A stretch of DNA of 46,477 nucleotides from a virus. This document shows positions 5,440-27,586 of the stretch, in pieces (the first letter of the stretch is position 1; the number at the start of each line of letters is the position of its first letter). Location: positions 1 to 46,477 of the IMG/VR virus record IMGVR_UViG_3300045988_130925, one strand, 5' to 3'. Position numbers and translations under genes: made by a program. The notes below the pieces were generated by a model. It saw only the letters and a program-made list of their open reading frames with translations, searched no databases and was not told where the DNA came from.

Positions 5440-5459
5440 TTAAGAGTCGGAGGACGAAG

Positions 5460-5702: not shown

Positions 5703-5720
5703 GATTGGAGGATGTGGATT

Positions 5721-8279: not shown

Positions 8280-9791
8280 ATGATAAACGGAGAACTTATT
8301 GTAGATAATTTTGCTGGGGGAGGAGGGGCTAGCACGGGTATTGAGGATGCAACAGGTTGTTGTGTGGACATAGCCATTAACCATGATCCGGAAGCTATTA
8401 AGATGCACAAGGCTAACCATCCGTACACAGAGCATTACATTGAGGATGTTTGGCAGGTTGACCCGGTAAAGGTGTGCAATGGGCATCCAGTGGGTCTGGC
8501 ATGGTTTTCACCGGACTGTAAGCACTTCTCCAAGGCCAAAGGTGGAAAGCCGAAAGATAAGAACATTCGTGGTCTTGCATGGGTAGCTTGTAGATGGGCT
8601 GGATTGGTGAGACCGCGGGTGATCATGTTGGAGAACGTCGAAGAATTTAGGACATGGGGGCCGCTAAACCGTGCTCATCATCCGATCAAAGCAAAACAAG
8701 GTGCGACATTCCGGAAGTTTGTGCAACAGCTCACAGAACTTGGATACGAAGTACAGTTCCGGGAACTTGTAGCGGCGGATTATGGAGCGCCGACAATGAG
8801 AAAGCGTTTCTTCATGATCGCGAGATGTGATGGTAAGCCGATTGTATGGCCAGAGCCTACACACGGACCGGCAGACAGCGCGGAAGTGAAACAGGGATTG
8901 CTTAAGCCGTATGTTGGAGCATATACACAGTTGGACTTTTCGCTTCCGTGCCCGTCTATCTTCGACACATCGGAAGAAATCAAAGAGAAATACGGTATCC
9001 GGGCAGTAAGACCGCTCGCAAAGAAAACGATGGATCGTATTGCACGTGGCGTAAAAAAGTTTGTTTTAGACAATCCAGCGCCATTTATAGTGCCGATAGG
9101 ATATGGAGAGAGAAAGGGACAGTCGCCGAGAATCCATGATATAGACAAACCATTGCCAACTATTGTTGGAAGTGGAAAACACTATTTATGTGTTCCACTG
9201 CTGATCCAGTATCATTCCGAAACCACAAAGGATGAGGTCCGCGGACAGGGGATTGAAGCGCCGATTATGACGGTGGACGGATCGAACCGATACGGTCTGG
9301 TGACATCCTTCATCAGCAAATTTTATAAAAGCGGCACTGGACAGGACATTCGCGACCCACTTCACACGATCACTGCCGGAGATGGACATTTTGGAGAGGT
9401 CCGAGCTTTTTTAACGAAATATTATGGATCTGGAACCGGACAAAGCATTGAGGATCCGTTGGATACCGTAACAGCGAGGGATCGCTTCGGCCTTGTAACA
9501 CTATATGGAACGGAATATCAGATAGTTGATATTGGGCTGCGTATGCTCGAGCCAAAAGAATTGTATGGGTGCCAAGGTTTTCCAGAGGACTATATCATTG
9601 ATCGAGACTGTGATGGAAAGACATATAAGCGGAGTGAGCAGGTACGGCGCTGCGGCAACGCTGTTTGCCCTCCAATCCCTACGGCACTGGTACGGGCGAA
9701 TCTCATGGAACTGTGTGTTGCGAAGCGGCTGCCGAATTGTAGGTTTGACCGATTGAAAGAAGAAACAGGAGGCCAGCTACGTTTTGCGTAA
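8280..9791 (+). CDS. DNA (cytosine-5)-methyltransferase, orphan
   Basis: Motif I DNFAGGGG, motif IV FSPDCKHFS, MLENVEEF (ENV), QGFP, motif X CGNAVCPP. Confidence 0.9.
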   Translation: MINGELIVDNFAGGGGASTGIEDATGCCVDIAINHDPEAIKMHKANHPYTEHYIEDVWQVDPVKVCNGHPVGLAWFSPDCKHFSKAKGGKPKDKNIRGLAWVACRWAGLVRPRVIMLENVEEFRTWGPLNRAHHPIKAKQGATFRKFVQQLTELGYEVQFRELVAADYGAPTMRKRFFMIARCDGKPIVWPEPTHGPADSAEVKQGLLKPYVGAYTQLDFSLPCPSIFDTSEEIKEKYGIRAVRPLAKKTMDRIARGVKKFVLDNPAPFIVPIGYGERKGQSPRIHDIDKPLPTIVGSGKHYLCVPLLIQYHSETTKDEVRGQGIEAPIMTVDGSNRYGLVTSFISKFYKSGTGQDIRDPLHTITAGDGHFGEVRAFLTKYYGSGTGQSIEDPLDTVTARDRFGLVTLYGTEYQIVDIGLRMLEPKELYGCQGFPEDYIIDRDCDGKTYKRSEQVRRCGNAVCPPIPTALVRANLMELCVAKRLPNCRFDRLKEETGGQLRFA

Positions 9792-12296: not shown

Positions 12297-13724
12297 ATGG
12301 GAATCTTATCAACGATAAAAAGGTGGTTTAGCATGATATTTAAACGGCAGGCAGAGAACGACTTTGATGTGGAATCCATCGTATCTCCAGAGATGGAAAA
12401 AGCTATAGATCAGTGTGCGAAGATATACCACGGTCAGCCGGAGTGGTTGGACGATGATGAGGGCATTAAGACCATCAACTTTGCAAAAGCGCTTTGCTCT
12501 GAAACTGCCCGCCTGGCAACACTGGGTATCGGAATACATCTGGAGGGCAGCGCCCGTGCAACGTGGTTGCAGCAGCAGATAGACCTTGTCTATGCGAAAC
12601 TCCGCGACTGGGTGGAGTATGGATGTGCATACGGAACCGTGTTTTTGAAGCCAAACGGCACAAGTCTGGATGTATTCACCCCGGCGGACGTGCTGCTTGT
12701 TGATTATGACAACTTGGATGTGCGCGGAATCATCTTCAAGGACAGCTACCAGTCCGGGAAGAAATGGTACACCCGCCTGGAGTATCACAGGTTTGTGGAG
12801 ACGGTACAGGATGGCGTGACGCTCTACCCCTACTATGTGAGCAACCGGGCATACGTTTCTAAATCTGCCGATAGCCTTGGTGATCCGGTGCCGCTGACGC
12901 AGACGAAATGGGCTGATATGTTGGAGGACACGCCGCCGATTCTTAAAGCATCCGGGGAGCCGCTGGACAAGCCGATGTTTGGTGTCTTCCGCACACCGCA
13001 GGCCAATAACGTAGATATATCGTCCCCACTTGGGCTGCCGATATTCCGCGAAGCCGTAGAAGAACTGAAAGACCTTGACATAGCATACAGCCGGAATGCG
13101 GGAGAGATATTTGACAGCCAGAAAATCATACTGGCAGATGACAGACTGATGTATGAGAGCGGGCAGAAGATAAAACACAGTGGCCCGGCGGACGCGGTTG
13201 GTCTTCCGCACTACGTTAAAAATGTATTCGGCAACGATACAAAGGAGTTTTACCAGGAGATTAACCCACAGCTTAATACCGAAGTCAGAATCAAGGGCAT
13301 CAATAACCTGTTAAGCCAGATTGGATACAAGGCCGGATTCGCGAACGGGTACTTTGTCTTTAACGAGTCCTCTGGCATCCAGACGGCTACAGGCGTGGAA
13401 GCTGACCAACAGCGCACCGTCCAGTTTATCAAGGATGTACGCGATCAGTTGGAAGCGTGCCTTGATGCCACCATATACGCACTTAACGTATACGCAGACC
13501 TTTACAACCTGTCACCTGTAGGGCCTTATGAGGTTACATATGACTTTGGTGACATCCTGTATGACCGGGAAGCGGATCGGAGCCGCTGGTGGCAGTATGT
13601 TACGCAAGGCAAGGTTCCGGCGTGGTACTACTTCGTGAAGTTCGAGGGCATGACGAAAGAGGATGCGAAAGCAATGGTTGATGAAGCACAGCCGGAAGAA
13701 AAAGGGCTGTTTGATGAAGAATAG
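12297..13724 (+). CDS. portal protein (SPP1 gp6-like)
   Basis: 475 aa, acidic C-terminus, position after the terminase genes. Confidence 0.85.
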   Translation: MGILSTIKRWFSMIFKRQAENDFDVESIVSPEMEKAIDQCAKIYHGQPEWLDDDEGIKTINFAKALCSETARLATLGIGIHLEGSARATWLQQQIDLVYAKLRDWVEYGCAYGTVFLKPNGTSLDVFTPADVLLVDYDNLDVRGIIFKDSYQSGKKWYTRLEYHRFVETVQDGVTLYPYYVSNRAYVSKSADSLGDPVPLTQTKWADMLEDTPPILKASGEPLDKPMFGVFRTPQANNVDISSPLGLPIFREAVEELKDLDIAYSRNAGEIFDSQKIILADDRLMYESGQKIKHSGPADAVGLPHYVKNVFGNDTKEFYQEINPQLNTEVRIKGINNLLSQIGYKAGFANGYFVFNESSGIQTATGVEADQQRTVQFIKDVRDQLEACLDATIYALNVYADLYNLSPVGPYEVTYDFGDILYDREADRSRWWQYVTQGKVPAWYYFVKFEGMTKEDAKAMVDEAQPEEKGLFDEE

Positions 13725-13729
13725 GAGGT

Positions 13730-14554
13730 ATGGAGATGATAAGTAACTGTGGGCATGATGAGCGCGGCAAGTATTCCGGCGGCAAGGCAGGAGATCAGAA
13801 AGGTGACGAGTGGGCCGTTATCCCGTGGTATAGCCGCCCGTGGGGCGTTATGCTCCGGCACCCAAACGCTACGGTAGGGAAAAAGATTGCTGATCTTGCG
13901 GAAAGAGCGGCGAAAAATGACCATATCGGCTATGACCAGGGAGACCGTTACACATTCTGGCAGCAGCTGAAAGCATCCGGCTATGACCCGGCGAAGATCA
14001 CGGTTGACTGCGAAGCGGACTGTAGCTCCGGAGTTGCGGCACTGGTAAAGGCTGTTGGATATCTGATGCAGGACAAAAAGCTCCAAGGAGTGAGCGTCTA
14101 CTGTTATACTGGCAACCTTCGGGCGGCACTGGTAAAAGCCGGATTTAACGCATATATGGACAAAGAGTATCTCAACGGAGATTCATATTTGCAACCGGGT
14201 GACGTGCTGCTGCTGGAAGGGCACCATGTGGCGGTAAATCTGACTGAGGGAAAGAATGCAACCATAGGAACGCTTTTAACGGGATGGAGAAAAACATCTG
14301 ATGGCAAGTATATGTATTTCTCTGACGGCAAAGCCTTAAAAAACCGCTGGGAACTTATCAACCATCACTGGTACCTGTTTGGCGCAGACGGCTATATGCT
14401 GACCGGGTGGCACAGATGGGACGGACACAACGTAGATCCAGAGGGCAACACCGGGGACTGGTACTATCTGGATGAGACTGCCGGGGGAGTACTGGAGGGT
14501 GCTTGCTGGCACAGCCGGGACAATGGAAGCATGGAAATATGGTATGTAGAGTAG
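13730..14554 (+). CDS. peptidoglycan hydrolase (NlpC/P60- or amidase-like Cys/His domain) with C-terminal cell-wall-binding repeats
   Basis: Catalytic-looking EADCSSG and EGHHVAVN. C-terminal GW/YY repeats (GWRKTSDGKYMYF, HHWYLFGADGYMLTGW, DWYYLDE) of choline-binding type. An alternative ATG lies at 13736. Confidence 0.7.
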   Translation: MEMISNCGHDERGKYSGGKAGDQKGDEWAVIPWYSRPWGVMLRHPNATVGKKIADLAERAAKNDHIGYDQGDRYTFWQQLKASGYDPAKITVDCEADCSSGVAALVKAVGYLMQDKKLQGVSVYCYTGNLRAALVKAGFNAYMDKEYLNGDSYLQPGDVLLLEGHHVAVNLTEGKNATIGTLLTGWRKTSDGKYMYFSDGKALKNRWELINHHWYLFGADGYMLTGWHRWDGHNVDPEGNTGDWYYLDETAGGVLEGACWHSRDNGSMEIWYVE

Positions 14555-16265: not shown

Positions 16266-17489
16266 ATTATACTTAATCCAGAATATTTACGCCAGATAGC
16301 AGAGGGCAGCGAGGATATAGCATCTTCGCTGCATAGCTATATCCTAAACCGAATCATCGAAGCTATCATGATCCGGTTGGGGCGCGGGGAGAAGTACATA
16401 CTCACATCATCCGACCGATGGCGCATCCAGATACTACAGGATGCCGGGTATATGTTGCAGGATATCACGCAGGAGATAGCCCGATATACAAAGTTACAGC
16501 GCGAAGAGGTAGCCGCCGCAATGGAAGAAGCCGGAGTAAAGGCTATGGCTTACGATAAGGCTGTATACGAAGCTGCCGGAATTACCACGGAAGCCCTAGA
16601 ACAGTCTCCGGCACTAGTGCGGATACTTCAAAGGGATTACGAAGCCACTATGGGCGAGTGGTCAAATATGACAAGAACCACCGCAGAAGCCGCACAGAGC
16701 CTATTTATCAGTGAGTGCGACAATGCGTACCATAAGGTCATAAGCGGGGCTGTATCGTACATACAGGCTGTCAGAGAAGCTGTTGATACGGTTGCGCAGA
16801 ATGGTGTTATAGTCCGGTATCCAACGGGGCATAGAGACACCATTGAGACGGCAACAGCGCGAGCGGTGCGCACCGGGATATCTCAGGCTTCCGGTGACAT
16901 ATCCATGCAGCGGATGAAAGAGCAGGAGTGGGATATAATCCTTGTATCGGCACACATCGGGGCCAGAACTGGAGACGGCGGGGCGAATCCTGGAAACCAC
17001 CTGTGGTGGCAAGGCCAGTTTTATAGCCGAACCGGGCAAGACAAGCGCTTCCCTCCGTTTTCTCTGACCGGATATGGCACGGGAGAGGGCCTGGGCGGTT
17101 GGAACTGCCGTCACAGCTTTGGACCCGGTGACGGAGTGAATAATCCGTATAAGGATATCCAAACTGCGGACAACGAGCGCATGGAGAAGTTGGAGCAGCG
17201 GCAACGAGCCTTAGAGCGCAGAATCCGCAAAACAAAGCAAGCGGTTATGGGCCTACAGACGGCGGTAGAAAACTGCAAGGATGACGCACTGCGCTTCGAA
17301 TTGCAAGCCGAGCTTGACAGGAAGTCTTATCTTTTACAAAAGCAAAATGCTGCATACAAGGATTACTGTAAGCAGAACGACCTAAGAGAATTACAAGACC
17401 GCCTCATGATAGCGAAGTGGAACCGCCAGAGCGCCGCAAAAGCCAGAGGAGCTGCGAAGCGATATAAAACAGCAAAGGGGATTGACTGA
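16266..17489 (+). CDS. head morphogenesis protein (SPP1 gp7 / Mu F family), probable non-canonical start
   Basis: HLWWQGQFYS and GGWNCRHSF motifs. Sensible sequence (LNPEYLRQIAEGSEDIASSLHSYILNRIIEAI) extends upstream of the first ATG (16368) to a TGA at 16260-16262. Confidence 0.8.
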   Translation: MILNPEYLRQIAEGSEDIASSLHSYILNRIIEAIMIRLGRGEKYILTSSDRWRIQILQDAGYMLQDITQEIARYTKLQREEVAAAMEEAGVKAMAYDKAVYEAAGITTEALEQSPALVRILQRDYEATMGEWSNMTRTTAEAAQSLFISECDNAYHKVISGAVSYIQAVREAVDTVAQNGVIVRYPTGHRDTIETATARAVRTGISQASGDISMQRMKEQEWDIILVSAHIGARTGDGGANPGNHLWWQGQFYSRTGQDKRFPPFSLTGYGTGEGLGGWNCRHSFGPGDGVNNPYKDIQTADNERMEKLEQRQRALERRIRKTKQAVMGLQTAVENCKDDALRFELQAELDRKSYLLQKQNAAYKDYCKQNDLRELQDRLMIAKWNRQSAAKARGAAKRYKTAKGID

Positions 17490-17872
17490 TGGACAAATGG
17501 GAATATTTCAATCCGAACCCTGTTAAGGATAAGAGAACAGGAGATTGCGTTGTCCGGGCAATATGCAAGGCAACCGGTTTTGACTGGGAAACAGCATTCG
17601 CCGGATTAATGGTACAGGCATGTGCTCTGTCAGATATGCCGAGTGCAAATTATGTCTGGGGTGCGTACCTTAAAGACTTGGGATATCAGCGACACTTGAT
17701 AGACGATCATGGACGTTATATCTATACAGTCAACGACTTCTGCGCAGACCATCCAACCGGCACATACATTCTCTGTATAGATGGTCATGTGGTGACGGTA
17801 CAGAATGGCAAATATTACGACACCTGGGACAGCGGAGGCGAGATCCCAGTGTATTACTGGGAGAAAAAATAA
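17489..17872 (+). CDS. hypothetical protein with a papain-like Cys/His arrangement (tentative)
   Basis: TGDCVVRAICKA ... IDGHVVTV ... YDTWD; ATGA coupling to the MuF gene. Confidence 0.35.
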   Translation: MDKWEYFNPNPVKDKRTGDCVVRAICKATGFDWETAFAGLMVQACALSDMPSANYVWGAYLKDLGYQRHLIDDHGRYIYTVNDFCADHPTGTYILCIDGHVVTVQNGKYYDTWDSGGEIPVYYWEKK

Positions 17873-17892
17873 TACTTTAGGAGATAAACACT

Positions 17893-18234
17893 ATGGAAGT
17901 GATTATACACTATGTAACTGCACACTGGGTCTCATGGCTGTTTGGCCTTATATCAGTATTGCTTTCTGGGGCATATCATAAATTATCGAAGCAATTAAAA
18001 TCAGAGCGCACCCGAACAAATGCAATCAATGCGGGAGTTTTGGCGCTCCTCCATGACCGACTTTATCAGGCCTGTACCTTTTATTTAAAACGCAAATACT
18101 GCACCCTGGAAGACAGAGATAATCTTGAGTATATGTTTAAGCCATACAAGGCACTCGGAGGAAATGGAACCGGTGAGGATCTTTATAACAGGTGTTTGGC
18201 TCTGCCATATGAGCCAAGAGAAAGCGAGGTGTGA
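17893..18234 (+). CDS. hypothetical protein with an N-terminal TM segment
   Basis: HWVSWLFGLISVLLSGAY hydrophobic stretch. Confidence 0.4.
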   Translation: MEVIIHYVTAHWVSWLFGLISVLLSGAYHKLSKQLKSERTRTNAINAGVLALLHDRLYQACTFYLKRKYCTLEDRDNLEYMFKPYKALGGNGTGEDLYNRCLALPYEPRESEV

Positions 18235-18476
18235 TAGATCTCATCTTGAAAGTGTATGATTTTACAGTACCGGAGCTGAACCAGTTCCGGCAACTTGCGA
18301 ATTTTACACCAGAAGAAAGAGCTTTATTCGAATACCGGGCCGCAGGTGTACCAATGGAGATCTGCGCAGAAAACATGAATGTCAGCCTTGCCACCGCGAA
18401 GCGGATCAGCCGCCGGGTAAATTCAAAGATTATTCGCATATGTGGAGAAAGCGAGAGTATGAGAAAATCTCTGTAA
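18231..18476 (+). CDS. small sigma-region-4/LuxR-like HTH regulator; C-terminus extended 7 aa by the IS insertion
   Basis: ERALFEYRAAGVPMEICAENMNVSLATAKRISRR is HTH-like. The last 7 codons lie inside the IS left end. Confidence 0.4.
   Translation: MIDLILKVYDFTVPELNQFRQLANFTPEERALFEYRAAGVPMEICAENMNVSLATAKRISRRVNSKIIRICGESESMRKSL
18445..18452. repeat. 8-bp target-site duplication GAGAAAGC (left)
   Basis: The identical octamer directly abuts both IS ends. Confidence 0.75.
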
Positions 18477-19937
18477 ATAAGATTCTTCTATGATAATTAA
18501 GAGCGATAAGCTTGTGAATCAGGCTTGTCGTTCTTGTTTTATATATAACAGTTGCTTACGGGCATGTCAAGAGCAGGCGGTTTCCCGCCTGTCTTCTTAA
18601 CCCTTCTTTTGCTTACTCGGGTAAGCGTCCTTCGTACATAATGCTCAGTTCTCCATAAACCTGAGCCCAATCACGGATGGTGGTAGTCCATTTTTTCGTA
18701 GCCTCAAAAGTAGCCAGATACAAGGCCTTTAACAGGGCGGTATCGCTTGGAAATACGCTTCTCTGACGGTTCAGCTTCCGGTATGTGGAGTTCAGTGATT
18801 CGATCGCATTGGTTGTATAAATGACCTTCCGGACAGTGGTTGAAAATTTAAAAATTGGAGAAACAGCATCCCAGTTGTCTTTCCAGCGTTTCATGGAATT
18901 CGGGTATTTCGGAGTCCATTTTTCAGTTACACGTTCCAAGGCAGCCAGAGCCTTCTGCTCATCAGCGGCCTGATAGATGGTTTTTAAATCTGCAGCAAAG
19001 GCTTTTCTGTCCTTGTCCGGAACGTATTTCAGGGTGTTTCTTACCTGATGGACAATACACCTCTGGTATTCTGTTTTGGGAAACGCAGCTGAAATCGCTT
19101 CTTTAATGCCTGTAAGGCCATCGGCACAGATGATCAGGATATCTTTTACTCCGCGATTTTTCAGTTCGTTCAGGACTGACAGCCAGTATTTCGCACTTTC
19201 ATTGTCACCAATCGTAATCGTCAGGACTTCCTTTTTCCCCTCCGCATTAATGCCAAGAATAACATAGGCTGCAAGCTTACGAATGACTCCATTATCCCGC
19301 ACAGAATAGTGGATCGCATCGATGTAAAGGATTGGATATACCTCATCCAATGGGCGGTTCTGCCAATCTTCAATCTGAGGAAGTATCTTATCCGTCACAT
19401 CGGATATGAAACTTTCTGATGTTTCAAAACCATAGATATCTTCAATCGTTTCCGAGATCTGGCGAGTGGTCATTCCTTTGGCATACATAGAGATGATCTT
19501 CTGATCAATATCAGAAATATCTTTCTGACGCTTTTTCACCACCTGTGGTTCAAAGGTCGATTTCCGATCCTGTGGGACCTCGATTTCCATAGAGCCATAT
19601 CGGCTGTTTACCTGCTTGTGTTTATAACCGTTACGATAATCGTCATTGTCAGAACGCTGGGATTTCTCATATCCAAGATGGTCATCCATTTCAGCCTCCA
19701 TCATTTCTTTAATGGTGCCGCCCAGAAGATCTTTGAGTGCATCCTGGATATCTTCTGCGGTCTCGATATCGTATTCCTCGAGAAGCTGGCGGATGATGTT
19801 CCTTTTTCCTTCAGTCATTTCAACTCTGTGAACTGGTTTCTTTTGTTTTGCCATAGTAAAAGGCCCTCCTAATGATATTTATTGTATCATAGAAGGACCT
19901 TACTTAGGTTATTTTACAGAAAAAGTTTCATAGGCTC
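18453..19937 (-). mobile_element. IS256-family insertion sequence (1485 bp)
   Basis: Mutator/IS256-type transposase ORF. Imperfect terminal inverted repeats GAGAGTATGAGAAAATCTCTGTAAA / GAGCCTATGAAACTTTTTCTGTAAA. 8-bp direct repeats on both flanks. Confidence 0.85.
18613..19854 (-). CDS. IS256-family (Mutator-type) transposase
   Basis: 413 aa. N-terminal LLEEYDIETAEDIQDALKDLLGGTIKEMMEAEMDDHLGY and a central DGLTG...CIVHQ region, typical of IS256 transposases. Confidence 0.95.
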   Translation of the reverse strand: MAKQKKPVHRVEMTEGKRNIIRQLLEEYDIETAEDIQDALKDLLGGTIKEMMEAEMDDHLGYEKSQRSDNDDYRNGYKHKQVNSRYGSMEIEVPQDRKSTFEPQVVKKRQKDISDIDQKIISMYAKGMTTRQISETIEDIYGFETSESFISDVTDKILPQIEDWQNRPLDEVYPILYIDAIHYSVRDNGVIRKLAAYVILGINAEGKKEVLTITIGDNESAKYWLSVLNELKNRGVKDILIICADGLTGIKEAISAAFPKTEYQRCIVHQVRNTLKYVPDKDRKAFAADLKTIYQAADEQKALAALERVTEKWTPKYPNSMKRWKDNWDAVSPIFKFSTTVRKVIYTTNAIESLNSTYRKLNRQRSVFPSDTALLKALYLATFEATKKWTTTIRDWAQVYGELSIMYEGRLPE

Positions 19938-19945
19938 GAGAAAGC
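19938..19945. repeat. 8-bp target-site duplication GAGAAAGC (right)
   Basis: Identical to 18445-18452. Confidence 0.75.
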
Positions 19946-19951
19946 TAAAAG

Positions 19952-19978
19952 AAAAGAGCCTGTATCAATGGCTCTTTT
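19952..19978. terminator. bidirectional hairpin terminator between convergent genes
   Basis: AAAAGAGCC-9 nt-GGCTCTTTT with A/T tracts on both sides. Confidence 0.6.
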
Positions 19979-20168
19979 CTTTGCTTTGGCCAATTCTTTT
20001 TTCAAAATCGTTGACTGCTGCTGTTATAAAGCTGTTTATTGACGAATAGCCAAGTGACTCAGCTACTTCTTTTATTCGCTCTTTTTCGCCCTTTTTTAAA
20101 ACAAGGCTAATTCGGTCATAGGCTTTCTGGTTGTACCTATTCTTGACCTCCGCTGATGTTTTGCCCAC
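19965..20168 (-). CDS. ribbon-helix-helix (CopG/Arc-like) DNA-binding protein (putative)
   Basis: GTG start 5 nt after AAGGAGGG. KNRYNQKAYDRISLVLKKGEKERIKEVAE has a beta-strand-plus-helix pattern. Confidence 0.55.
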   Translation of the reverse strand: MGKTSAEVKNRYNQKAYDRISLVLKKGEKERIKEVAESLGYSSINSFITAAVNDFEKRIGQSKEKSH

Positions 20169-20790
20169 TCTTTCCCTCCTTAACTTTTTCCAGTATCGGC
20201 TTGAAGAACCGCTCTTCCGCAGCTTTCCTCGCTGCCACTGCATCTTCAATATTATCGTACCGGCCCAGATTATAGTTTTTTCGTCTGAAAGTAATCTGTG
20301 CTGCCCATTTACCTTTTTCCTTGTTCCAGTAAACCCCTGTAAAACCAGATGTGTTGTTTTTAGACAACTGCGCTGTCAATGCTTCTGCCAATGTACCGTC
20401 TATATAGTGCTGTTTTTTTCGGTTTTCGTCGAGCGTAATCTTGGCAACCTCAGCAGTGTGTTTGCCACATGACCCAACTGTTTTTGCTTTGCCAATAGTG
20501 CGCTGGCAAGTTTCTCCACAGTCACATTTGCACTCCCAGATAAAACGGCCTTTCTCGTCTTTGCCTACTCTTTTAATAAAGGTTAGTCGTCCGGTCCTTT
20601 GGCCTGTCATATCAATGCTTCTATTGCAGCCGCACGATTTCGTGCGGCCAGTTCTTAACTTGTGGCCAGCAATATCTCTTACAGTACCGCACTCGCACTT
20701 ACAAGTGTAGTACTTGTTGTTGCTAGAATCAGTTTTGTCAGAATCGCTCAGTACAGTCCATTTTCCGAATTTATCGCCCGGGCTTATCAT
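20137..20790 (-). CDS. AP2-domain DNA-binding protein with two N-terminal Cys-rich modules
   Basis: SGFTGVYWNKEKGKWAAQITFRRKNYNLGRYDNIEDAVAARKAAE is AP2/ERF-type. Repeated W.V/F...CKC.CG...CGC modules. Confidence 0.8.
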   Translation of the reverse strand: MISPGDKFGKWTVLSDSDKTDSSNNKYYTCKCECGTVRDIAGHKLRTGRTKSCGCNRSIDMTGQRTGRLTFIKRVGKDEKGRFIWECKCDCGETCQRTIGKAKTVGSCGKHTAEVAKITLDENRKKQHYIDGTLAEALTAQLSKNNTSGFTGVYWNKEKGKWAAQITFRRKNYNLGRYDNIEDAVAARKAAEERFFKPILEKVKEGKSGQNISGGQE

Positions 20791-20972
20791 GCGAGAGTCT
20801 CCAGGAGCTCGATAACATCTGCAATATTGCCAACATAAAAAGGCTGTTCCTTTCTATTCATTCCTGCGTAAAACTCGCCGTCTTCTGTATAAAAAACAAT
20901 GTCGCTATCGCTGTAAACCTCAAAAGCTTTTTCAGTAAGCTCGCCTGTTCCTGTAAATTCATATCGTTCCAT
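20787..20972 (-). CDS. small hypothetical acidic protein
   Basis: ATG 20972 after AGGAGGAG; ATGA overlap with the AP2 gene. Confidence 0.45.
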   Translation of the reverse strand: MERYEFTGTGELTEKAFEVYSDSDIVFYTEDGEFYAGMNRKEQPFYVGNIADVIELLETLA

Positions 20973-20983
20973 TAATACTCCTC

Positions 20984-21340
20984 CTATTTGATTAATGATT
21001 TTGGAATCCAGCAAATCCAGCCCTTATAAGACCCAACGACTTCTCCTGTAGATACTCTTACCTGGATTGCTTTTTCGGATTCTTTCATGATTTCTTCGAT
21101 TTTTGCAAAAATATATCCGTTCTCTATCTTTTGCGTCCCATCCTCGTTTCTTGCAAAATCCATAAAAACATTATATTTTTCTGCTTTTTCCTGCTCTTTG
21201 TCAAAAAACCATTCTTTTACCGCGATATAGTTCGTCTTTGCATCCCTCCAAGATTTCTTTAGTGCAGAGGAAATGGTGAAGCCGAATCGTTTGACTAACT
21301 GCCATGCTTTTTTCATAATAGCTGATAAATCGTATTTCAT
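20984..21340 (-). CDS. hypothetical protein
   Basis: First gene of the leftward operon; AGGAGGAAACGGGA RBS, then ATG. Confidence 0.5.
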   Translation of the reverse strand: MKYDLSAIMKKAWQLVKRFGFTISSALKKSWRDAKTNYIAVKEWFFDKEQEKAEKYNVFMDFARNEDGTQKIENGYIFAKIEEIMKESEKAIQVRVSTGEVVGSYKGWICWIPKSLIK

Positions 21341-21377
21341 TCCCGTTTCCTCCTGCTTGATTGATATCTTTATTTTA

Positions 21378-21397
21378 ACATACTTGTGTAAGTATGT
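21378..21397. promoter_or_regulatory. 20-bp palindrome ACATACTT-GTGT-AAGTATGT in the divergent intergenic region
   Basis: Perfect 8-bp arms read directly; lies between the divergent operons. Confidence 0.35.
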
Positions 21398-21569
21398 AAA
21401 GGAAAAGTAGAACTTTTTTTAAACTTTTATGACCTGTTTTCTCCCGTCAAAATCTGAGACTATATAAGCATGGAGCAGATGTTTTCCTATGACTATGAGA
21501 TAGAGATACCTATAAAAACCGATTATCACGATATTTTGATCTTTTTGGAAGAATTGGAGGAAATCGAAA

Positions 21570-22034
21570 ATGGCAGCATATCCGAACATGTATCAGCCAT
21601 ACCAGCCGTATCAGGATCGTATGGCGCAGATGAACCAATATCAGCCCGTCCCGCAGCCGATGGCACCGACAAATAACCAAGGAATACTCTGGGTGCAGGG
21701 CGAGACTGGAGCAAAGTCTTACCTTGTTGCACCCGGATCATGCGTATTGCTGATGGACAGCGAAGCGGAGCGGTTTTACATCAAGTCAACGGATGTATCC
21801 GGCATGCCGCAACCTTTACGCGTATTTGAGTACCATGAAATAAATGGCAGAATGCCGCAGAAGCAGCCGGAAGCTGCCATGAATGATATGTATGTTACCC
21901 GTAAAGAGTACCAGGATCTTTTTGACAAATACAATGAGATTCTGGACAAGATAAATTCGTTTCCAGCAAGCGGCGGCTCTACTGCCAAACCAGAGAGCCG
22001 GAGACCAAAGGGAGGTGCGGCAGCAGATGAGTAA
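21570..22034 (+). CDS. hypothetical protein: Q/P/Y/M-rich N-terminus plus a small beta-rich domain
   Basis: TTGGAGGAAATCGAAA RBS, then ATG. N-terminus MAAYPNMYQPYQPYQDRMAQMNQYQPVPQPMAP. Confidence 0.6.
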   Translation: MAAYPNMYQPYQPYQDRMAQMNQYQPVPQPMAPTNNQGILWVQGETGAKSYLVAPGSCVLLMDSEAERFYIKSTDVSGMPQPLRVFEYHEINGRMPQKQPEAAMNDMYVTRKEYQDLFDKYNEILDKINSFPASGGSTAKPESRRPKGGAAADE

Positions 22035-22248
22035 CCCATTATTCCAAATGTTCGGCGGCATGCCGATGGGAAGCAACGGCCCCATGCAGATGATGCAGCA
22101 GTTTGCGCAGTTTAAGCAAAACTTTAAAGGAGATCCTAAAGCCGAGGTACAAAAGATGTTGCAGTCTGGCAGAATATCACAGGCGCAGCTTAACCAGGCT
22201 CAGCAGATGGCACAGCAGTTTAAACGGATGCTGGGCGGCATGAAATAG
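22027..22248 (+). CDS. small Met/Gln-rich hypothetical protein
   Basis: MSNPLFQMFGGMPMGSNGPMQMMQQFAQFKQ...; overlaps the upstream stop. Confidence 0.5.
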   Translation: MSNPLFQMFGGMPMGSNGPMQMMQQFAQFKQNFKGDPKAEVQKMLQSGRISQAQLNQAQQMAQQFKRMLGGMK

Positions 22249-22295
22249 TACATTATCCCGGCCGGGAATGTAAATAAATCAAAGGAGATATCAAT

Positions 22296-23072
22296 ATGGA
22301 TGGAACTTACAGCTTAGCCGATATTGCGGCGGCTACCGGAACCAACAACCGGAACAATGAAGGAATGTTTGGCGGAGACGGTGTCTGGTGGCTCATCGTT
22401 TTATTCATTTTCGCTTTCTGCGGATGGGGTGGCAATGGCTGGGGAAACAGCGGAGGTGGAGCAGCCGGAAGCGCATACACCGATTCCGCAATCCAGCGTG
22501 GCTTTGACAACCAGGCAGTTATCAGCAAACTGGACGGCCTGTCCAGCGGCCTGTGTGATGGCTTCTATGCCATGAATAACGGTATGCTTACCGGAATCAA
22601 CGGCATCAATACAAACGTCATGCAGACTGGCTTCGGCATCCAGCAGGCTATTAATGCCGATACTGTAGCCAACATGCAGAACACCAATGCAATCCAGGCG
22701 CAGCTTGCTCAGTGTTGCTGTGAGACCCGGGAAGCAATCCAGGGTGTAAACTACAACATGGCGCAGAACACCTGTGCACTCCAGAACACCATGAATAACA
22801 ACACCAGAGACATTATCGACAGCCAGAACGCAGGAACCAGAGCTATTCTGGACTACCTGTGCAACGAGAAAATTTCTTCCCTCCAGGCTGAAAACAATGA
22901 TCTTAGACGTGCTGCATCTCAGGATCGTCAGAGTGCATTGCTTACTACAGCTATGGCAGCACAGACCCAGCAGCTCATTAATGCGATCAATCCGGCACCG
23001 ATTCCGGCTTACCAGGTGCCGAACCCGAACACATATTACGGATGCGGCTGCAATACGGGCTGTAATTGCTGA
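22296..23072 (+). CDS. membrane-anchored Asn/Gln-rich protein with CCC and a C-terminal GCGCNTGCNC cysteine cluster
   Basis: AAGGAGATATCAAT RBS, then ATG. TM VWWLIVLFIFAFCGW flanked by Gly-rich tracts. Confidence 0.65.
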   Translation: MDGTYSLADIAAATGTNNRNNEGMFGGDGVWWLIVLFIFAFCGWGGNGWGNSGGGAAGSAYTDSAIQRGFDNQAVISKLDGLSSGLCDGFYAMNNGMLTGINGINTNVMQTGFGIQQAINADTVANMQNTNAIQAQLAQCCCETREAIQGVNYNMAQNTCALQNTMNNNTRDIIDSQNAGTRAILDYLCNEKISSLQAENNDLRRAASQDRQSALLTTAMAAQTQQLINAINPAPIPAYQVPNPNTYYGCGCNTGCNC

Positions 23073-23139
23073 CAACATCATATCTGTATCTTCCGGCAAA
23101 ATGTCGGATGTTCGGCGAAATGCCGGTATTACGCAAATC

Positions 23140-23162
23140 GGCAGGCTCAGTCCTGCCTTTTT
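23140..23162 (+). terminator. rho-independent terminator-like hairpin
   Basis: GGCAGG-CTCAGT-CCTGCC followed by TTTTT. Confidence 0.55.
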
Positions 23163-23187
23163 GCGATATGAAAAAGGAGAAAACAAT

Positions 23188-23610
23188 ATGGCTGAATATG
23201 TAGCTGTTGCCGCTCAGGATGTGGCAGCGAATGGAAATGTAGTATATACCAACACAGCGGTAAAAGGGACCGCATGTGTTCAGCATCGGGAGGGCAGCGG
23301 AATAGTTACTCTCAGAGGAATGACGAACCAGTGTAAGGCCCGCTATTTTGTGGCCTTTTCTGCAAATATTGCCGTTCCGACCGGAGGGACAGCAGAAGCA
23401 ATCTCCCTCGCAATCGCGATAGGCGGCGAACCGGTCTTATCATCTCAGATGATATCCACTCCTGCGGTGGTGGAAGCGTTTAACAACGTATCCGCAGGTA
23501 TCTTTATTGATGTGCCGCGTGGGTGCTGCTCAAATATTGCAGTGGAGAACACCAGCACGCAGGCTATAACCGTAGCAAACGCAAATCTTGTGGTAACACG
23601 GGTAGCATAA
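23188..23610 (+). CDS. beta-rich protein resembling BclA C-terminal / exosporium TNF-like domains (tentative)
   Basis: AAAGGAGAAAACAAT RBS, then ATG. Alternating hydrophobic beta pattern ending ...NANLVVTRVA, compared with the BclA CTD ending ...IIIEKVA. Contains a CC pair. Confidence 0.5.
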   Translation: MAEYVAVAAQDVAANGNVVYTNTAVKGTACVQHREGSGIVTLRGMTNQCKARYFVAFSANIAVPTGGTAEAISLAIAIGGEPVLSSQMISTPAVVEAFNNVSAGIFIDVPRGCCSNIAVENTSTQAITVANANLVVTRVA

Positions 23611-23619
23611 GGAGGTGGG

Positions 23620-24171
23620 ATGATGAGAGATATTAAAGATCTGTGCGCACGAATTGAAGATGAAATATCCAATATCGCAGAAAAAGGCCTCACCTCTGGC
23701 AATCTGGACACCGCCTTTAAGTTGATTGATATGTATAAGGATATAAAAAACACAGAGTACTGGGATAAAAAGGGCGAGTATTATATGACCGTGCTGGATC
23801 AGATGCGTGACGGTGTAGGTGATTACAGTGAACGCCGTGGACGAGACAGCATGGGCCGTTACAGTTCTTCTGATGGCCGGATGATGCCGGACTATGACCG
23901 CGGATCTTCTTACATGCGCCGAGGCGAACATTACGTGCGAGGGCATTACAGCCGCAATGATGGACGGGATGCTTACGACGATTACATGACCCAGAAACAG
24001 AGCTACCGTTCTGGAAAATCCGAAGACTGCAAGCGTAAGATGCTTGCCGCACTGGAAGAGCATCTGGATGGGCTGACCGCTGAGATTGGGGACATGTCAA
24101 AAGACGCGGAGTGCCGCGAAGAACGTGACCTTGTGAAGCGGTATGTTGATAAACTTAGAGATATGTTATAA
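23620..24171 (+). CDS. hypothetical protein with a central Arg/Gly/Asp/Tyr/Ser-rich low-complexity region
   Basis: AAGGAGGTGGG RBS, then ATG. RRGRDSMGRYSSSDGRMMPDYDRGSSYMRRGEHYVRGHYSRNDGRDAYDDY. Confidence 0.6.
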   Translation: MMRDIKDLCARIEDEISNIAEKGLTSGNLDTAFKLIDMYKDIKNTEYWDKKGEYYMTVLDQMRDGVGDYSERRGRDSMGRYSSSDGRMMPDYDRGSSYMRRGEHYVRGHYSRNDGRDAYDDYMTQKQSYRSGKSEDCKRKMLAALEEHLDGLTAEIGDMSKDAECREERDLVKRYVDKLRDML

Positions 24172-24425
24172 ACGTGTGGATAGCTTACATACGGATAAAT
24201 GATACATTATAAGTGCAGCAAAGATTAACCTCCTGTGAATCTTTTCTAGCCAATTTACACCTCCCGCGCACGCCCTTAATATAAACGGGTCATCCCGGAG
24301 GTTAAAAGCGGGTGAAATTCCCGGCGTGCGTATTTGCCATACCAATGGCACGGATTTTTGTTTTTGGTTCTTGCTGTTCACCCCTAGCCAATGCAGCAAG
24401 ACTTTTTCACATCGACTTCTTTCTC

Positions 24426-24458
24426 AAAACACCGGTTGCAATATGTAGCCGGTGTTTT
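24426..24458. terminator. hairpin AAAACACCGG-13 nt-CCGGTGTTTT
   Basis: Read directly; lies immediately 5-prime of the tRNA. Confidence 0.5.
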
Positions 24459-24459: not shown

Positions 24460-24532
24460 GGACCGTTAGCTCAGCGGTGAGAGCGCCCGGCTCATAACCG
24501 GGTGGTCCGGGGTTCGAATCCCTGACGGTCCA
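24460..24532 (+). tRNA. tRNA with anticodon CAT (Met, or Ile2 if lysidine-modified)
   Basis: Manual cloverleaf: acceptor GGACCGT/ACGGTCC, D arm GCTC-AGCGGTGA-GAGC, anticodon arm CCCGG-CTCATAA-CCGGG, T arm CGGGG-TTCGAAT-CCCTG. 73 nt, CCA not encoded. Confidence 0.85.
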
Positions 24533-24610: not shown

Positions 24611-25243
24611 ATGCAGAAACTTATTGAAACACTTGGATCATTTGGTATTGAAGTTCCGGCAGACAAGGCCGAAGAAGTAAAAAGAGCTTTGTCTAAGTAC
24701 TACAAGAACAATGGAGAGGTTACACAGACTCTAACAAAGGTAGAGGGTGAGCGTGATGCCTGGAAAGAACGTGCGGAGACTGCAGAAAACACACTTAAGA
24801 GCTTTGAGGGAATTGACCCGGAAAGCATTAAAGGAGAGCTTGCAACCTGGAAACAGAAAGCGGCAGATGCAGAGAAAGCGTATAACGACAAGATCTATGA
24901 AAGAGATTTTGCAGACGCTCTCAAAACCGCACTGGAAGATGTTGAGTTTTCTTCCGCATCAGCGAAAAAGGCGGTTATGGCTGATATCAAGGAAGCCGGG
25001 CTTAAACTCAAGGATGGCAAGATTCTGGGCCTTAACGATCTGCTGGAGCAGATGAAAAAAGACGATGCGTCAGCTTTTGTTGACGAAGGCCAGAAACAGG
25101 CAGAACATAACCAGGCGCGGTTCACAACCAGTCTCAGTAAAAACACCCCGCCGGGCAAACTGACGAAAGCTGATATCATGAATATCAAAGATGCAGGAGA
25201 ACGTCAGGCTGCCATTGCAAGCAACATGTCACTGTTTGAGTGA
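24611..25243 (+). CDS. capsid scaffolding protein (Gp20-like)
   Basis: Acidic coiled-coil 210 aa directly upstream of the major capsid gene; AGGAGGATAGAT RBS, then ATG. Confidence 0.75.
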   Translation: MQKLIETLGSFGIEVPADKAEEVKRALSKYYKNNGEVTQTLTKVEGERDAWKERAETAENTLKSFEGIDPESIKGELATWKQKAADAEKAYNDKIYERDFADALKTALEDVEFSSASAKKAVMADIKEAGLKLKDGKILGLNDLLEQMKKDDASAFVDEGQKQAEHNQARFTTSLSKNTPPGKLTKADIMNIKDAGERQAAIASNMSLFE

Positions 25244-25289
25244 TCCAATTACCGACCATTTAACAGCTATAGGTAGAAAGGATTTTTTT

Positions 25290-26459
25290 ATGGCAAAAAA
25301 TAACCTTATTAAGCAGGAAAACATCCAGGTTCGCGCACGCGAAGTGGATTTTGTTACCCGTTTTGAGAGAAACTGGGAGCACCTGCGCGAAATTCTTGGC
25401 GTTCTGAGAATGATTAAGAAAGACCCGGGGTCTACTCTTAAATCTAAGTACGCACAGGGCACTCTTGAGAGTGGAAAAGTTGGAGAGGGCGAGGAAATCC
25501 CGTACTCCAAATTCGAGGTCAAGGAAAAGAGCTACGCAGAGATCACCGTAGAGAAGTATGCAAAAGCGGTATCCATCGAAGCTATCAAGACTTACGGCTA
25601 CGATGTTGCCGTGGAGCTGACTGACGATGAGTTTCTTTTCGAACTCCAGACCGATGTTACCGGACGGTTTTACACCTATCTTAAAACCGGAAGCCTTACC
25701 TCTACTGAGAGTACCTTCCAGATGGCTCTTGCTATGGCAAAAGGCCGCGTTGAGGATAAGTTCAAGCAGATGCACAGATCTATCCCGAATGGAATCGTTG
25801 GCTTTGTGAACGGTCTGGATGTGTATGAGTACATAGGTGCGGCAAACATCACCGTGCAGAACAAGTTTGGCTTCCAGTATGTCAAAGACTTCATGGGATT
25901 CAATACCATATTCCTGCTGTCTGAGAGCGAGATTCCACGTGGTAAGGTCATTGCTACCCCGGTAGATAACATCGTGCTGTACTATGTGGACCCGAGCGAT
26001 TCTGACTTTGCAAAAGCCGGACTGGTTTACACCGTGGCAGGCGAGACCCCGCTCATTGGTTTCCATACCCAGGGCAACTACCACACAGCAGTTTCTGAAG
26101 CATTTGCCATCATGGGCATGGTACTGTTTGCAGAGTACCTGGACGGCATCTCTGTTATCAGCTTCGGCGGCTCTGAAACCCTTGGTGATCTGACTGTGGC
26201 TTCCGCAGAAGGCACCGATAGCGGAACCACTAAGCTGACCGTTACCCCGGCAAAGGGGAATGAGGGCAATGTATACAAATACAAGGTTGCATCCAGTCAG
26301 ACAACCGTGGAGTATGGCCAGAATGTAAAGAACTGGAGCGCATGGGACGGCAAGTCCGATATTACAGCTGCAACCGGGCAGGTTATCACGGTAGTTGAGT
26401 GTGACAGCACCTATAAGGCACTGAGCGCAGGACATGCGACAGTAACCGCAAAGGCGTAA
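25290..26459 (+). CDS. major capsid protein with a C-terminal Ig-like extension
   Basis: ATG 25290 within ORF 25191-26459. N-terminus ...VDFVTRFERNWEHLREILG is typical of Firmicutes siphophage capsid proteins. The last ~90 aa (LTVASAEGTDSGTTKLTVTPA...HATVTAKA) are Big_2-like. Confidence 0.85.
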   Translation: MAKNNLIKQENIQVRAREVDFVTRFERNWEHLREILGVLRMIKKDPGSTLKSKYAQGTLESGKVGEGEEIPYSKFEVKEKSYAEITVEKYAKAVSIEAIKTYGYDVAVELTDDEFLFELQTDVTGRFYTYLKTGSLTSTESTFQMALAMAKGRVEDKFKQMHRSIPNGIVGFVNGLDVYEYIGAANITVQNKFGFQYVKDFMGFNTIFLLSESEIPRGKVIATPVDNIVLYYVDPSDSDFAKAGLVYTVAGETPLIGFHTQGNYHTAVSEAFAIMGMVLFAEYLDGISVISFGGSETLGDLTVASAEGTDSGTTKLTVTPAKGNEGNVYKYKVASSQTTVEYGQNVKNWSAWDGKSDITAATGQVITVVECDSTYKALSAGHATVTAKA

Positions 26460-26969: not shown

Positions 26970-27263
26970 ATGAAGTTTAGAAAAAAGCCTGTTATCATTG
27001 AAGCATTTAAGTATGATGGTGATCTGAAAGACCGGAACGGCTTGTTTTACGTTCCATTTTGGGCGCAAGAAGCTTATAAGAAAGGCATTATGTATTACGG
27101 CGCAGAAACTTGTGATTTACCTCCGTGTGAGCTGTATATCGAAACATTAGAGGGAACACATCATGTTTCTGTTGGAGACTATATTATCCAGGGCGTAAAC
27201 GGAGAACTTTATCCGTGCAAGCCAGATATCTTTGAAAAAACTTATGAGGAGGTGAAAGAGTAA
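26970..27263 (+). CDS. PGDYG-like small protein (non-structural insert, tentative)
   Basis: KKPVIIEAFKY ... VGDYIIQGVNGELYPCKPDIFEKTYE. Confidence 0.4.
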   Translation: MKFRKKPVIIEAFKYDGDLKDRNGLFYVPFWAQEAYKKGIMYYGAETCDLPPCELYIETLEGTHHVSVGDYIIQGVNGELYPCKPDIFEKTYEEVKE

Positions 27264-27586
27264 TGGAAGCATTATTCGCAAACATGACCGTGATTCTGGC
27301 AGTGATCGGGATTCTGGCTTTTTGCGTATCGGTCATCACCCAGGTATTTAAGGGTGTAGGTGTCTTGTCCAGGATTCCGACCGATGCACTGGTGTTCGTT
27401 CTTTCCATCGGTATTACTGTAGCCGCTTTTGTGGCATACATGCAGTATATCCAGATGCAGATATTATGGTACATGATTCTGGCAGCTATCATGGCGGGCT
27501 TTATCGTTGCCTTTGTAGCTATGTATGGCTGGAAAAAGCTCACGGAGCTGTGGAAAAGAATGAGTAAGACTGACATTAAAAAGTAA
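27263..27586 (+). CDS. three-TM small membrane protein, holin-like
   Basis: Three hydrophobic helices and a charged C-terminus KKLTELWKRMSKTDIKK. Confidence 0.45.
   Translation: MEALFANMTVILAVIGILAFCVSVITQVFKGVGVLSRIPTDALVFVLSIGITVAAFVAYMQYIQMQILWYMILAAIMAGFIVAFVAMYGWKKLTELWKRMSKTDIKK

Follow-up and report, generated by a model that had tools for sequence, protein, structure and literature searches.

A five-gene cassette in a viral head-gene region is part of a larger, horizontally mobile phage module of gut anaerobes

Five co-directional genes, g1 to g5, lie among the head genes of a virus represented by IMG/VR record IMGVR_UViG_3300045988_130925, whose 46,477 nucleotides are referred to here as the window. 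What do these genes encode, and why are they found in a head-gene region? The original prediction was that they form a self-regulated accessory module for a surface layer, with a spore-coat- or exosporium-like layer as the lead idea. We find that g1-g5 are members of a larger conserved, self-contained and horizontally mobile phage module. In the window, this module spans 17489-24171 and is interrupted by an insertion that bears an insertion sequence (IS). The boundaries originally drawn around g1-g5 were too narrow, since two further genes outside them, p127 and p81, travel with the five. The genes in the window, with g1-g5 taken from the list of open reading frames (ORFs), are:

17489-17872, plus strand: p127, module member upstream of the five genes first described; candidate thiol enzyme; phrog_3754
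17893-18234, plus strand: p113, phrog_4105 (E 5e-34); clade-specific gene between p127 and p81; membership uncertain
18231-18476, plus strand: p81, putative helix-turn-helix (HTH) protein of sigma-70 region-4 type
21570-22034, plus strand: g1, 154 aa; Q/P/Y-rich N-terminus, small beta domain, C-terminal helix
22027-22248, plus strand: g2, 73 aa; Met/Gln-rich; its start overlaps the stop of g1
22296-23072, plus strand: g3, 258 aa; hallmark protein of the module
23188-23610, plus strand: g4, 140 aa; stand-alone jelly roll with a predicted BclA-C/C1q/TNF-like fold
23620-24171, plus strand: g5, 183 aa; helical ends flanking an R/G/D/Y/S-rich core

The ORF list agrees with the positions and shared direction first given for the five genes, and residue counts agree with the compositions ascribed to their products. 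g2 is 21% Q and 15% M, and g5 is 14% D and 11% R with about 8% each of G, S and Y. g3 is 13% N and 11% G and has 11 Cys; its CCC triplet is at residues 140-142 and its C-terminal tail is GCGCNTGCNC. The strong ribosome-binding sites that had been noted are also present, with GGAGG, GGGAGG or AAGGAG found 6-10 nt 5' of the start codon in each of the five genes; g2 has an alternative GTG start at 22015. In comparison with related loci, the median ratio of nonsynonymous to synonymous substitution rates (dN/dS) is 0.037 for g1, 0.070 for g2, 0.055 for g3, 0.053 for g4 and 0.035 for g5. Because these values lie at 0.035-0.07, g1-g5 are real genes and not chance ORFs in low-complexity DNA. Each of the five matches a PHROG of unknown function (E 5e-25 to 3e-66), including phrog_21718 for g1 (E 1e-37), phrog_22984 for g2 (5e-25), phrog_16490 for g3 (1e-55) and phrog_28802 for g5 (3e-66). 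g1 aligns with its homologue in Clostridium perfringens phage XP41-N3 at an hhalign probability of 100. Scans of the window g1-g5 against Pfam, NCBIfam and PADLOC assigned no family, and there was no informative match for g1, g2 or g5 in Pfam and the pooled Pfam scan of their families, or for g1 in a PDB profile search.

The module was surveyed by tblastn and hidden Markov model (HMM) searches over 87 + 80 + 80 loci, with locus lists made up of the best-scoring 80 of each scan and with ORFs called from the first in-frame start codon. g1-g5 recur together in phage contigs and in bacterial-genome loci, as expected of the accessory module first proposed. In the HMM survey of 80 genome loci, the canonical order is [p81] - p127 - g1 - g2 - g3 - (g4 or x125) - (g5 or DUF7841 protein). 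Many of these loci are truncated; g3 is found in all 80, g5 in 54, the g1 types in 45, p127 in 43, g4 in 39, x125 in 29, g2 in 28, p81 in 24 and the DUF7841 protein in 12, where it takes the place of g5. The protein that fills the g4 slot, x125, is found in locus L089 (7697-8074) and in 28 genome loci, among them L179 (5139-5543). Proteins of this family are about 130 aa long, carry a CKxVCxLC motif at the N-terminus ahead of a beta-rich domain, and match nothing in Pfam or PDB. Their layout may resemble that of endospore appendage (Ena) subunits, in which a Cys-bearing N-terminal connector precedes a jelly roll. Modules in Bacteroidota have a similar order, namely g3, a beta protein, a beta-plus-coiled-coil protein, an R/G/Y/D/E-rich peptide and a DUF7841 protein. 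By hhalign, g3 alone is detectably homologous between the Firmicutes- and Bacteroidota-type modules (probability 100, E 5e-92 for the two g3 families), and the DUF7841 protein is also found in some Firmicutes modules. The similar gene order may be a case of analogy.

p127 is located just before g1 or just after g5 where it travels with the cassette in the genome loci. It is also present in the module of Butyrivibrio virus Ceridwen and in about 70 IMG/VR loci, many of which come from dataset 3300045988 and are close relatives, so that counts among them are not independent. Its dN/dS is 0.11. Seven residues (N8, N10, D19, C20, R23, H100 and D111) are invariant across 34 diverse members, and D19-C20, H100 and D111 fit the pattern of a Cys-His-Asp triad. 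p127 has no Pfam or PDB sequence match, and no transglutaminase or peptidase family was matched. p113 is seen in just three of the surveyed loci. For p81, the window protein matches Sigma70_r4 at E 0.08. In a pooled Pfam scan of ten p81-family sequences, in which the matching members are not specified, four match Sigma70_r4 (best E 2.4e-10) and four match r4_2 (2.6e-7), and GerE was also matched. p81 stands directly upstream of the cassette in both head-module and integrase-adjacent contexts, and it is probably a dedicated regulator of the module.

The module is found at no fewer than four different genome positions (at least four), and the head-module position in the clade of the window is one of several. 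About 70 IMG/VR contigs and the complete Dulem virus 35 genome have the order MuF - p127 - (p113) - p81 - [variable insert] - g1-g5 - scaffold - major capsid protein (MCP). In the window, Pfam and PHROGs confirm MuF (16368-17489), the scaffold (24611-25243) and the capsid protein (25287-26459). Thus, the cassette does lie between MuF and the scaffold and capsid genes, as had been described, but it does not adjoin MuF directly, because three plus-strand genes and a 3-kb insertion intervene. A second phage type (L002-L004) has the order Xis - integrase - p81-like - g1' - g2' - g3 - g4 - g5', far from the head genes. In Ceridwen, p127 - g1 - g2 - g3 - g4 - [HNH/AP2 insert] - g5 is located after the endolysin gene and before XRE, antirepressor and replication genes. 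XP41-N3 has g1 - g2 - g3 and then a different Cys-rich beta protein, before Gam/Erf/SSB, and in phage C3_41T2LP the module adjoins recombination/replication genes. In cr116_1 it follows holin/L,D-carboxypeptidase/terS and is directly upstream of a scaffold-like gene and MCP, and it is missing from crAss001 of the same subfamily. This variable position and patchy presence, together with the recurrent gene set, bear out the accessory nature of the module. A PHROG scan of the two flanking ORFs on each side in the genome loci gave mostly endolysin, amidase and holin on the upstream side, with about 29 lysis-type matches across 14 listed PHROGs among 130 ORFs, the counts of the families overlapping. 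On the downstream side integrase predominates, alongside HNH endonucleases and phrog_1233. From these flanking matches, the canonical prophage position is lysis cassette - module - integrase.

g3 is widely distributed. There are at least 7998 g3 protein clusters at 90% identity, and the viral-contig scans gave more than 590 confirmed contigs each. Homologues are found in many Crassvirales, where they are annotated as 'spike protein/glycoprotein' or 'outer capsid protein/viral fiber', in an isolated Bacteroides uniformis phage, in other Bacteroides phages and in Methanomassiliicoccales-assigned viruses. There are three cultured carriers, Butyrivibrio virus Ceridwen, C. perfringens phage XP41-N3 and Bacteroides phage C3_41T2LP. 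Among bacterial isolates, g3 matches were found in the genomes of Lachnospira intestinalis and Muriventricola aceti. The metagenome-assembled genomes (MAGs) with g3, in which host assignment of phage contigs is error-prone, include Lachnospiraceae, Oscillospiraceae, Bacilli, Erysipelotrichaceae, Collinsella, Akkermansia, Alloprevotella, Paludibacteraceae, Anaerovibrio and others. Butyrivibrio and Bacteroides are non-sporulating genera, and crAss-like phages are mostly virulent. Ceridwen has been grown lytically only, and its authors regard it as virulent (PMC7372960). Both temperate phages and phages that are observed or considered to be lytic carry the module, and their hosts are gut anaerobes of several phyla. 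We conclude firmly that it is not spore-specific.

The hallmark protein, g3, has a conserved layout. From the N- to the C-terminus, it comprises FGG, a hydrophobic run, GWGGNG, an N/Q-rich helical region with CCC, PIPAY and a Cys-rich tail. Of 191 distinct homologues, 189 have CCC, 178 have an (F/W)GG-type motif ahead of the hydrophobic run, 149 have a Gly-rich stretch after it, and 171 have at least three Cys within the last 20 residues. The single transmembrane helix that had been assigned to g3 corresponds to a conserved hydrophobic segment, but this has only about 14 residues in the window protein (11-15 across the homologues), which is short for such a helix and makes it a borderline membrane span. 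The AlphaFold2 (AF2) model of g3, built from 40 sequences, is unusable, with a predicted local distance difference test score (pLDDT) of 41.8; a helix is predicted over the hydrophobic segment. There is no C-terminal hydrophobic anchor, and no signal peptide or lipobox was seen when the translations of the window module proteins were inspected by eye. The g3 profile has no PDB match under E 0.01. Matches to HA2 (E 0.018-0.5), coronavirus spike HR1 and Csm1 were set aside as insignificant or compositional, and a match to the ZorA coiled-coil tail in PADLOC (16.5 bits, E 7e-4) was judged compositional. Apart from this last one, PADLOC defence models gave no match to g1-g5, and no CotY/ExsY or CdeC family in Pfam or NCBIfam matched g3.

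For g4, the original prediction had proposed a fold like the BclA C-terminal or TNF-like domains from the strand pattern, and structure modelling agrees. The AF2 model is an all-beta jelly roll of medium confidence (pLDDT 67, predicted TM-score 0.62). In a Foldseek search of the PDB, BclA comes first (E 1e-5, TM-score 0.68), with entries 3tyj, 1wck and 2z5w at E 1-2e-5 and TM-scores of 0.66-0.70; over the matches to this fold, TM-scores are 0.66-0.72 at E about 1e-5. The other matches include F-BclA, 4-1BBL, C1q, BxpB and ExsFA (BclA_C and ExsF had been named as folds to look for), and nearly all of the top 50 belong to the TNF, C1q or BclA families. Against BFVD, g4 matches a phage 'BclA protein' and C1q-domain, collagen-repeat and tail-fibre proteins. 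In Pfam, 8 of 82 g4-family members, which are 38-59% identical to g4, match BclA_C (PF18573), with a best E of 2.3e-10. Window g4 itself matches nothing in Pfam at E<=0.1, and the link to BclA_C is transitive through these members. Based on the model, g4 has a predicted BclA-C/C1q/TNF-like fold. At 90% clustering g4 has 2131 relatives, and its family falls into 769 clusters at 50% identity. The 150 listed representatives are stand-alone proteins of 54-196 aa with a single matched stretch each, and among them there are no collagen-like repeats and no exosporium-targeting N-terminus. A sequence match of g4 to PDB 5e3e (E 0.012) was discarded as insignificant or compositional.

How is the module regulated in the window? 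It had been suggested that the cassette is controlled from a divergent regulatory region by an operon encoding AP2 and ribbon-helix-helix (RHH) proteins. In a blastn alignment, the 42-kb viral contig L010 shares 97.8% identity with the window over 16296-18446 and 96% over 21462-24339, and window 18447-21461 stands in place of 61 bp of L010. The features of this stretch are:

18447-21461: strain-specific insertion of 3015 bp that splits the module (blastn against L010)
18613-19854, minus strand: IS256-family transposase; Transposase_mut E 2.7e-120 over 371/379 profile positions
19965-20249, minus strand: RHH-like gene, inside the insertion
20137-20790, minus strand: AP2-domain gene (AP2 E 3.5e-6) with duplicated Zn-ribbon-like CxCxC motifs
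20787-21014 and 20984-21340, minus strand: two small genes, inside the insertion
21368-21407: imperfect inverted repeat within the insertion; 18-nt arms, 78% complementary

Because L010, at 96-98% identity, is without this stretch, what had appeared to be regulatory architecture is a strain-specific insertion. We thus reject the AP2/RHH operon as the regulator of the cassette; it is firmly unrelated to the module. The 20-bp palindrome that had been described does exist as an inverted repeat, but it is imperfect and belongs to the inserted element. The p81/g1 junction is an insertion hot spot, and other relatives hold different inserts of 0.5-2.2 kb. In most relatives, p81 directly precedes g1 and is followed by a strong terminator hairpin and a TATAAT-like element. 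AP2 or HNH-type genes are also found at other cassette junctions, in L045 (g3/g4) and Ceridwen (g4/g5), and in L023. A direct-repeat motif of the ACTTTTTTGA type occurs in two or three tandem copies upstream of g1 in the insert-bearing L071, L087, L025, L078 and others. The motif might serve as an operator or promoter, either for the inserted units or for the module itself. The window has it once, at 21412-21429 inside the inserted DNA, and this single match is not beyond chance (24 of 100 shuffles).

What, then, could the module do? We suggest, with a probability of only about 0.3, that it encodes a late, envelope-directed, self-assembling complex that is built on g3 and acts around lysis or egress. 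The module would form a separate transcription unit, controlled by p81 and expressed late in lytic growth. g3 would be the core, and its short Gly-flanked hydrophobic segment would target the cytoplasmic membrane. Cleavage of g3 at the conserved (F/W)GG site by p127 possibly precedes membrane targeting, and the Met/Gln-rich g2 possibly keeps g3 soluble until cleavage, as a holdase. g3 would oligomerise through its N/Q-rich helical region and cysteines, and it would carry the putatively trimeric jelly-roll protein g4, with the low-complexity g1 and g5 as assembly partners. As infection ends, the complex would act on the cell envelope and not on spores, whether in lysis, in egress or in conditioning the released material. 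Of these steps, the processing of g3 at FGG by p127 and the holdase role of g2 are conjectures from sequence. We favor envelope or egress because the hydrophobic Gly-rich segment of g3 is conserved and lysis-gene adjacency recurs in unrelated phages, and also because the module is present in virulent phages and has its own probable sigma-r4 regulator.

Several points weigh against this proposal. With 11-15 residues, the hydrophobic run is shorter than is usual for a transmembrane helix, and the g3 model (pLDDT 42) is unusable. The idea of p127 as a protease comes from a residue pattern and has no Pfam or PDB support, and the putative chaperone role of g2 is taken from its composition. The position directly upstream of scaffold and capsid genes, in the clade of the window and in cr116_1, fits a role in the virion equally well. 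Holin and endolysin suffice for lysis of Gram-positive hosts, so the need for an accessory of six to seven genes is unclear. In addition, the partners of g3 in Bacteroidota phages have no detectable homology to g1, g4 or g5. In a more far-reaching version, which we consider unlikely, the g3 module would be a previously unrecognised machine, common to phages whose gut-anaerobe hosts are Gram-positive, Gram-negative or archaeal. Here, p127-primed g3, fusion-peptide-like and cysteine-stapled, would act together with an exchangeable jelly-roll trimer (g4, x125 or the Bacteroidota types) to breach or remodel the envelope, or else would coat particles. The coat would be a spore-coat-like protective or adhesive layer on released particles, for transmission between anaerobic hosts.

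The main rival is a virion-associated set, which we regard as a tentative but serious possibility. In this case g3 would be a coiled-coil stalk and g4 a C1q/TNF-like knob of a capsid fibre or decoration, or g3, g1 and g5 would be internal cargo or ejection proteins, with p127 as a maturation enzyme. The module is just upstream of scaffold and MCP inside the head block in the window and in about 70 of 80 IMG/VR loci, and cr116_1, from an unrelated lineage, has the same arrangement. Against this, the location varies greatly between phages and in most cases falls outside the morphogenesis block, beside lysis/integrase or replication genes. A lattice-specific decoration is also made less likely by the sharing of g3 between T=9 crassviruses and siphoviruses, whose capsids are unrelated. 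The fold of g4 serves as the distal knob of viral fibres, and collagen-repeat, C1q and tail-fibre proteins are among its BFVD matches, but the listed members of the g4 family have no N-terminal stalk or anchor. The lack of a signal peptide on inspection is consistent with cytoplasmic assembly, and virulent phages carry the module. A hydrophobic segment is also compatible with packaging, since the crAss001 cargo protein gp45 has a predicted transmembrane helix (PMC10172136). However, crAss001, the sole related particle with a full structural atlas, is without the module. Carriage by phages seen or regarded as lytic, namely Ceridwen and the generally virulent Crassvirales, bears in the opposite direction on a lysogenic-conversion moron, expressed from the prophage to alter the host surface or membrane, for example for superinfection exclusion or as a colonisation trait. 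This we find rather unlikely, even though the commonest prophage site, from the lysis genes to the integrase/att end, is the classical moron site and the module has its own HTH regulator, flanking terminators and a patchy presence among relatives. In the clade of the window the module is co-directional within the late head-gene block, and the proteins other than g3 have no export signals.

Composition is the starting point for another, improbable explanation, in which prion-like and RG/DY-rich segments would drive phase separation and form a condensate or viral-factory scaffold that organises replication or assembly. g1, g2, g3 and g5 have fitting compositions (Q/P/Y, M/Q, N/Q and RG/DY), analogous R/G/Y/D/E-rich small proteins are held by the Bacteroidota modules, and in XP41-N3 and C3_41T2LP the module is beside recombination/replication genes. 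However, the argument is compositional only. The dN/dS of 0.035-0.07 and the exact conservation of CCC and PIPAY suggest a specific structure rather than bulk composition, and the jelly-roll protein and the hydrophobic segment would be left unexplained. This leaves the lead idea of the original prediction, a spore-coat- or exosporium-like layer on the spores of the lysogen. In its favor, g4 has a predicted BclA_C fold and relatives that match the BclA_C family, with BxpB and ExsFA among its structure matches, the partners are Cys-rich and Gln/Tyr-rich, an enzyme-like gene with Cys/His/Asp is present, and many hosts are Clostridia. It is contradicted by the distribution in non-sporulating and lytic-only contexts. 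The full cassette is in Ceridwen, for which only lytic growth has been seen, in a non-sporulating genus; the g3 family is in Crassvirales, other Bacteroides phages and a Methanomassiliicoccales-assigned virus, and in contigs binned to Akkermansia, Collinsella and Alloprevotella. Since several of the carriers or assigned hosts, such as Butyrivibrio and Bacteroides, do not sporulate, a spore coat is very unlikely. g4 is also without a collagen-like stalk or an exosporium-targeting N-terminus, and no GerQ, CotY/ExsY or CdeC-type Pfam family was listed for the window proteins or is among the 25 listed of the 29 families in the pooled scan. The GerQ-like layout that had been seen in g1 finds no support in sequence: g1 itself has no GerQ match, nor is there one in those 25 families (about 29 g1-family proteins were scanned), and its N-terminus has no lysine before residue 49. 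What probability remains beyond these readings belongs to something else.

Comparison with known systems places the module outside known kinds. Searches of Pfam, NCBIfam, PHROGs, PADLOC, PDB and the searchable literature turned up no described counterpart, in agreement with the original prediction, which could name none; an unindexed description could exist. By sequence comparison, only three parts appear to be of known families, g4 (BclA_C/C1q-TNF), p81 (sigma70 r4) and DUF7841, which is itself of unknown function. g4 shares its predicted fold with BclA_C (PF18573) and C1q/TNF domains according to a medium-confidence model, and its length of about 140 aa matches the domain size. Unlike the exosporium protein BclA, the listed g4 members are without collagen repeats and the targeting region, and g4 is phage-encoded, including in phages of non-sporulating hosts. 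Viral C1q/TNF fibre knobs, at phage tail-fibre tips and on giant-virus collagen-like fibres, have the same fold in a viral setting, and the g4 knob adjoins the long helical, possibly coiled-coil g3. They differ in that the knob and putative stalk of the module are separate polypeptides, the hydrophobic segment and Cys clusters of g3 are atypical of fibres, and the module is usually outside the tail and head gene blocks.

g3 also recalls spanins of the i-spanin Rz type and HA2, with its Gly-flanked hydrophobic segment, long helical region, conserved cysteines and Pro-rich end, and like spanins it is often encoded beside holin/endolysin genes. The best PDB matches of its profile are in the fusion-peptide and coiled-coil region of HA2 and are non-significant (E 0.018-0.5); this profile resemblance is probably the reason for the 'spike protein/glycoprotein' label in crAss phages. 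Unlike a two-component spanin, g3 has no lipoprotein partner among the window module proteins, whose N-termini were inspected, and is accompanied by four to six further conserved genes; moreover, most hosts of the module are monoderm and need no spanin. A class I fusion protein differs from g3 too, as there is no significant similarity and g3 is without an HA2-type C-terminal membrane anchor. With morons, the module shares its location between lysis genes and attachment site, patchy distribution, own regulator and flanking terminators, but it is also in virulent phages, is embedded in late structural operons and has six to seven co-adapted genes instead of one or two. The likeness to Bacillus subtilis GerQ/Tgl is superficial, consisting of the Gln-rich N-terminus and small domain of g1 with p127 nearby. 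GerQ is cross-linked through N-terminal lysines, whereas g1 has its first lysine only at residue 49.

In gut viromes, g3 and its partners rank with the more abundant of the uncharacterised gene sets. The module is found across phage orders and host phyla, travels as one block and evolves under strong purifying selection. Whatever its role, be it egress, coating or exclusion, it is likely a general feature of phage biology in the anaerobic gut. The BclA/C1q fold gains a phage context that is unrelated to spores. Because there are three cultured carriers, the role of the module is directly testable.

The downstream side of the module in the window carries RNA features, and a further hairpin is found within the cassette:

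23140-23157, plus strand: terminator-like hairpin between g3 and g4, a pattern match from a consensus scan
24265-24332, plus strand: RAGATH-21 motif (RF03097), 67.3 bits, E 1.3e-11, just under the gathering score of 70.3
24460-24532, plus strand: tRNA-Met with CAT anticodon (ARAGORN; Rfam 72 bits)

Terminators and a tRNA had been predicted to bound the g5 side, and hairpin scans found hairpins at 24335-24350 and 24426-24458, 3' of g5 and 5' of the tRNA-Met. Sigma-70 promoter and terminator scans gave no enrichment over shuffles. The RAGATH-21 copy is directly after g5 and ahead of the tRNA(s) and scaffold gene. Copies at the same position score 79-92 bits in L013 (9136-9211), L016 (9121-9196), L001 (10502-10578) and L012 (9063-9132), and the annotation of Dulem virus 35 places a 43-aa 'hypothetical protein' across the motif. 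Other RNAs near the module are a type II hammerhead ribozyme and skipping-rope RNAs in L002 and L013 (L002 12891-12956, minus strand; L002 19262-19362; L013 13796-13898), RAGATH-18 in Ceridwen (L088 1702-1774) and a Clostridiales-1 RNA upstream of the module in Lachnospira intestinalis (L174 1851-2019, minus strand).

In the phage clade of the window, the lysis genes seem to be dispersed over the morphogenesis region. An endolysin-like domain (ELLD, E 5.6e-72) with a choline-binding repeat is at 13730-14554, between MuF and a portal candidate (12297-13724) that has no Pfam match. A holin-like ORF with several transmembrane segments (27263-27586), labelled from the Dulem annotation, follows the head-tail connector gene. 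No lysis cassette was recognised by eye beside the integrase (39830-40954, minus strand), and a PDB search with the tail-region protein at 36775-37791, in the search for lysis genes of the window, gave no match. In two other loci, g3 or the module has unusual neighbors. In L093 (vir215, Methanomassiliicoccales-assigned; 3652-6259), a g3 homologue (phrog_16490) is just downstream of the reverse transcriptase of a diversity-generating retroelement, with an integrase near the locus end. In the 555-kb contig L005 (8778-10703), g4 and a truncated g5 lie after rplT (L20) and before scaffold/capsid genes, and this partial module looks like a prophage end or remnant. The window also encodes a C-5 cytosine DNA methylase (8280-9791, E 2.4e-27) upstream of the terminase genes. 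Its major capsid protein (25287-26459) has a C-terminal S-layer SbsC_C (Ig-like) domain (E 3.4e-16), which is a built-in capsid surface decoration.

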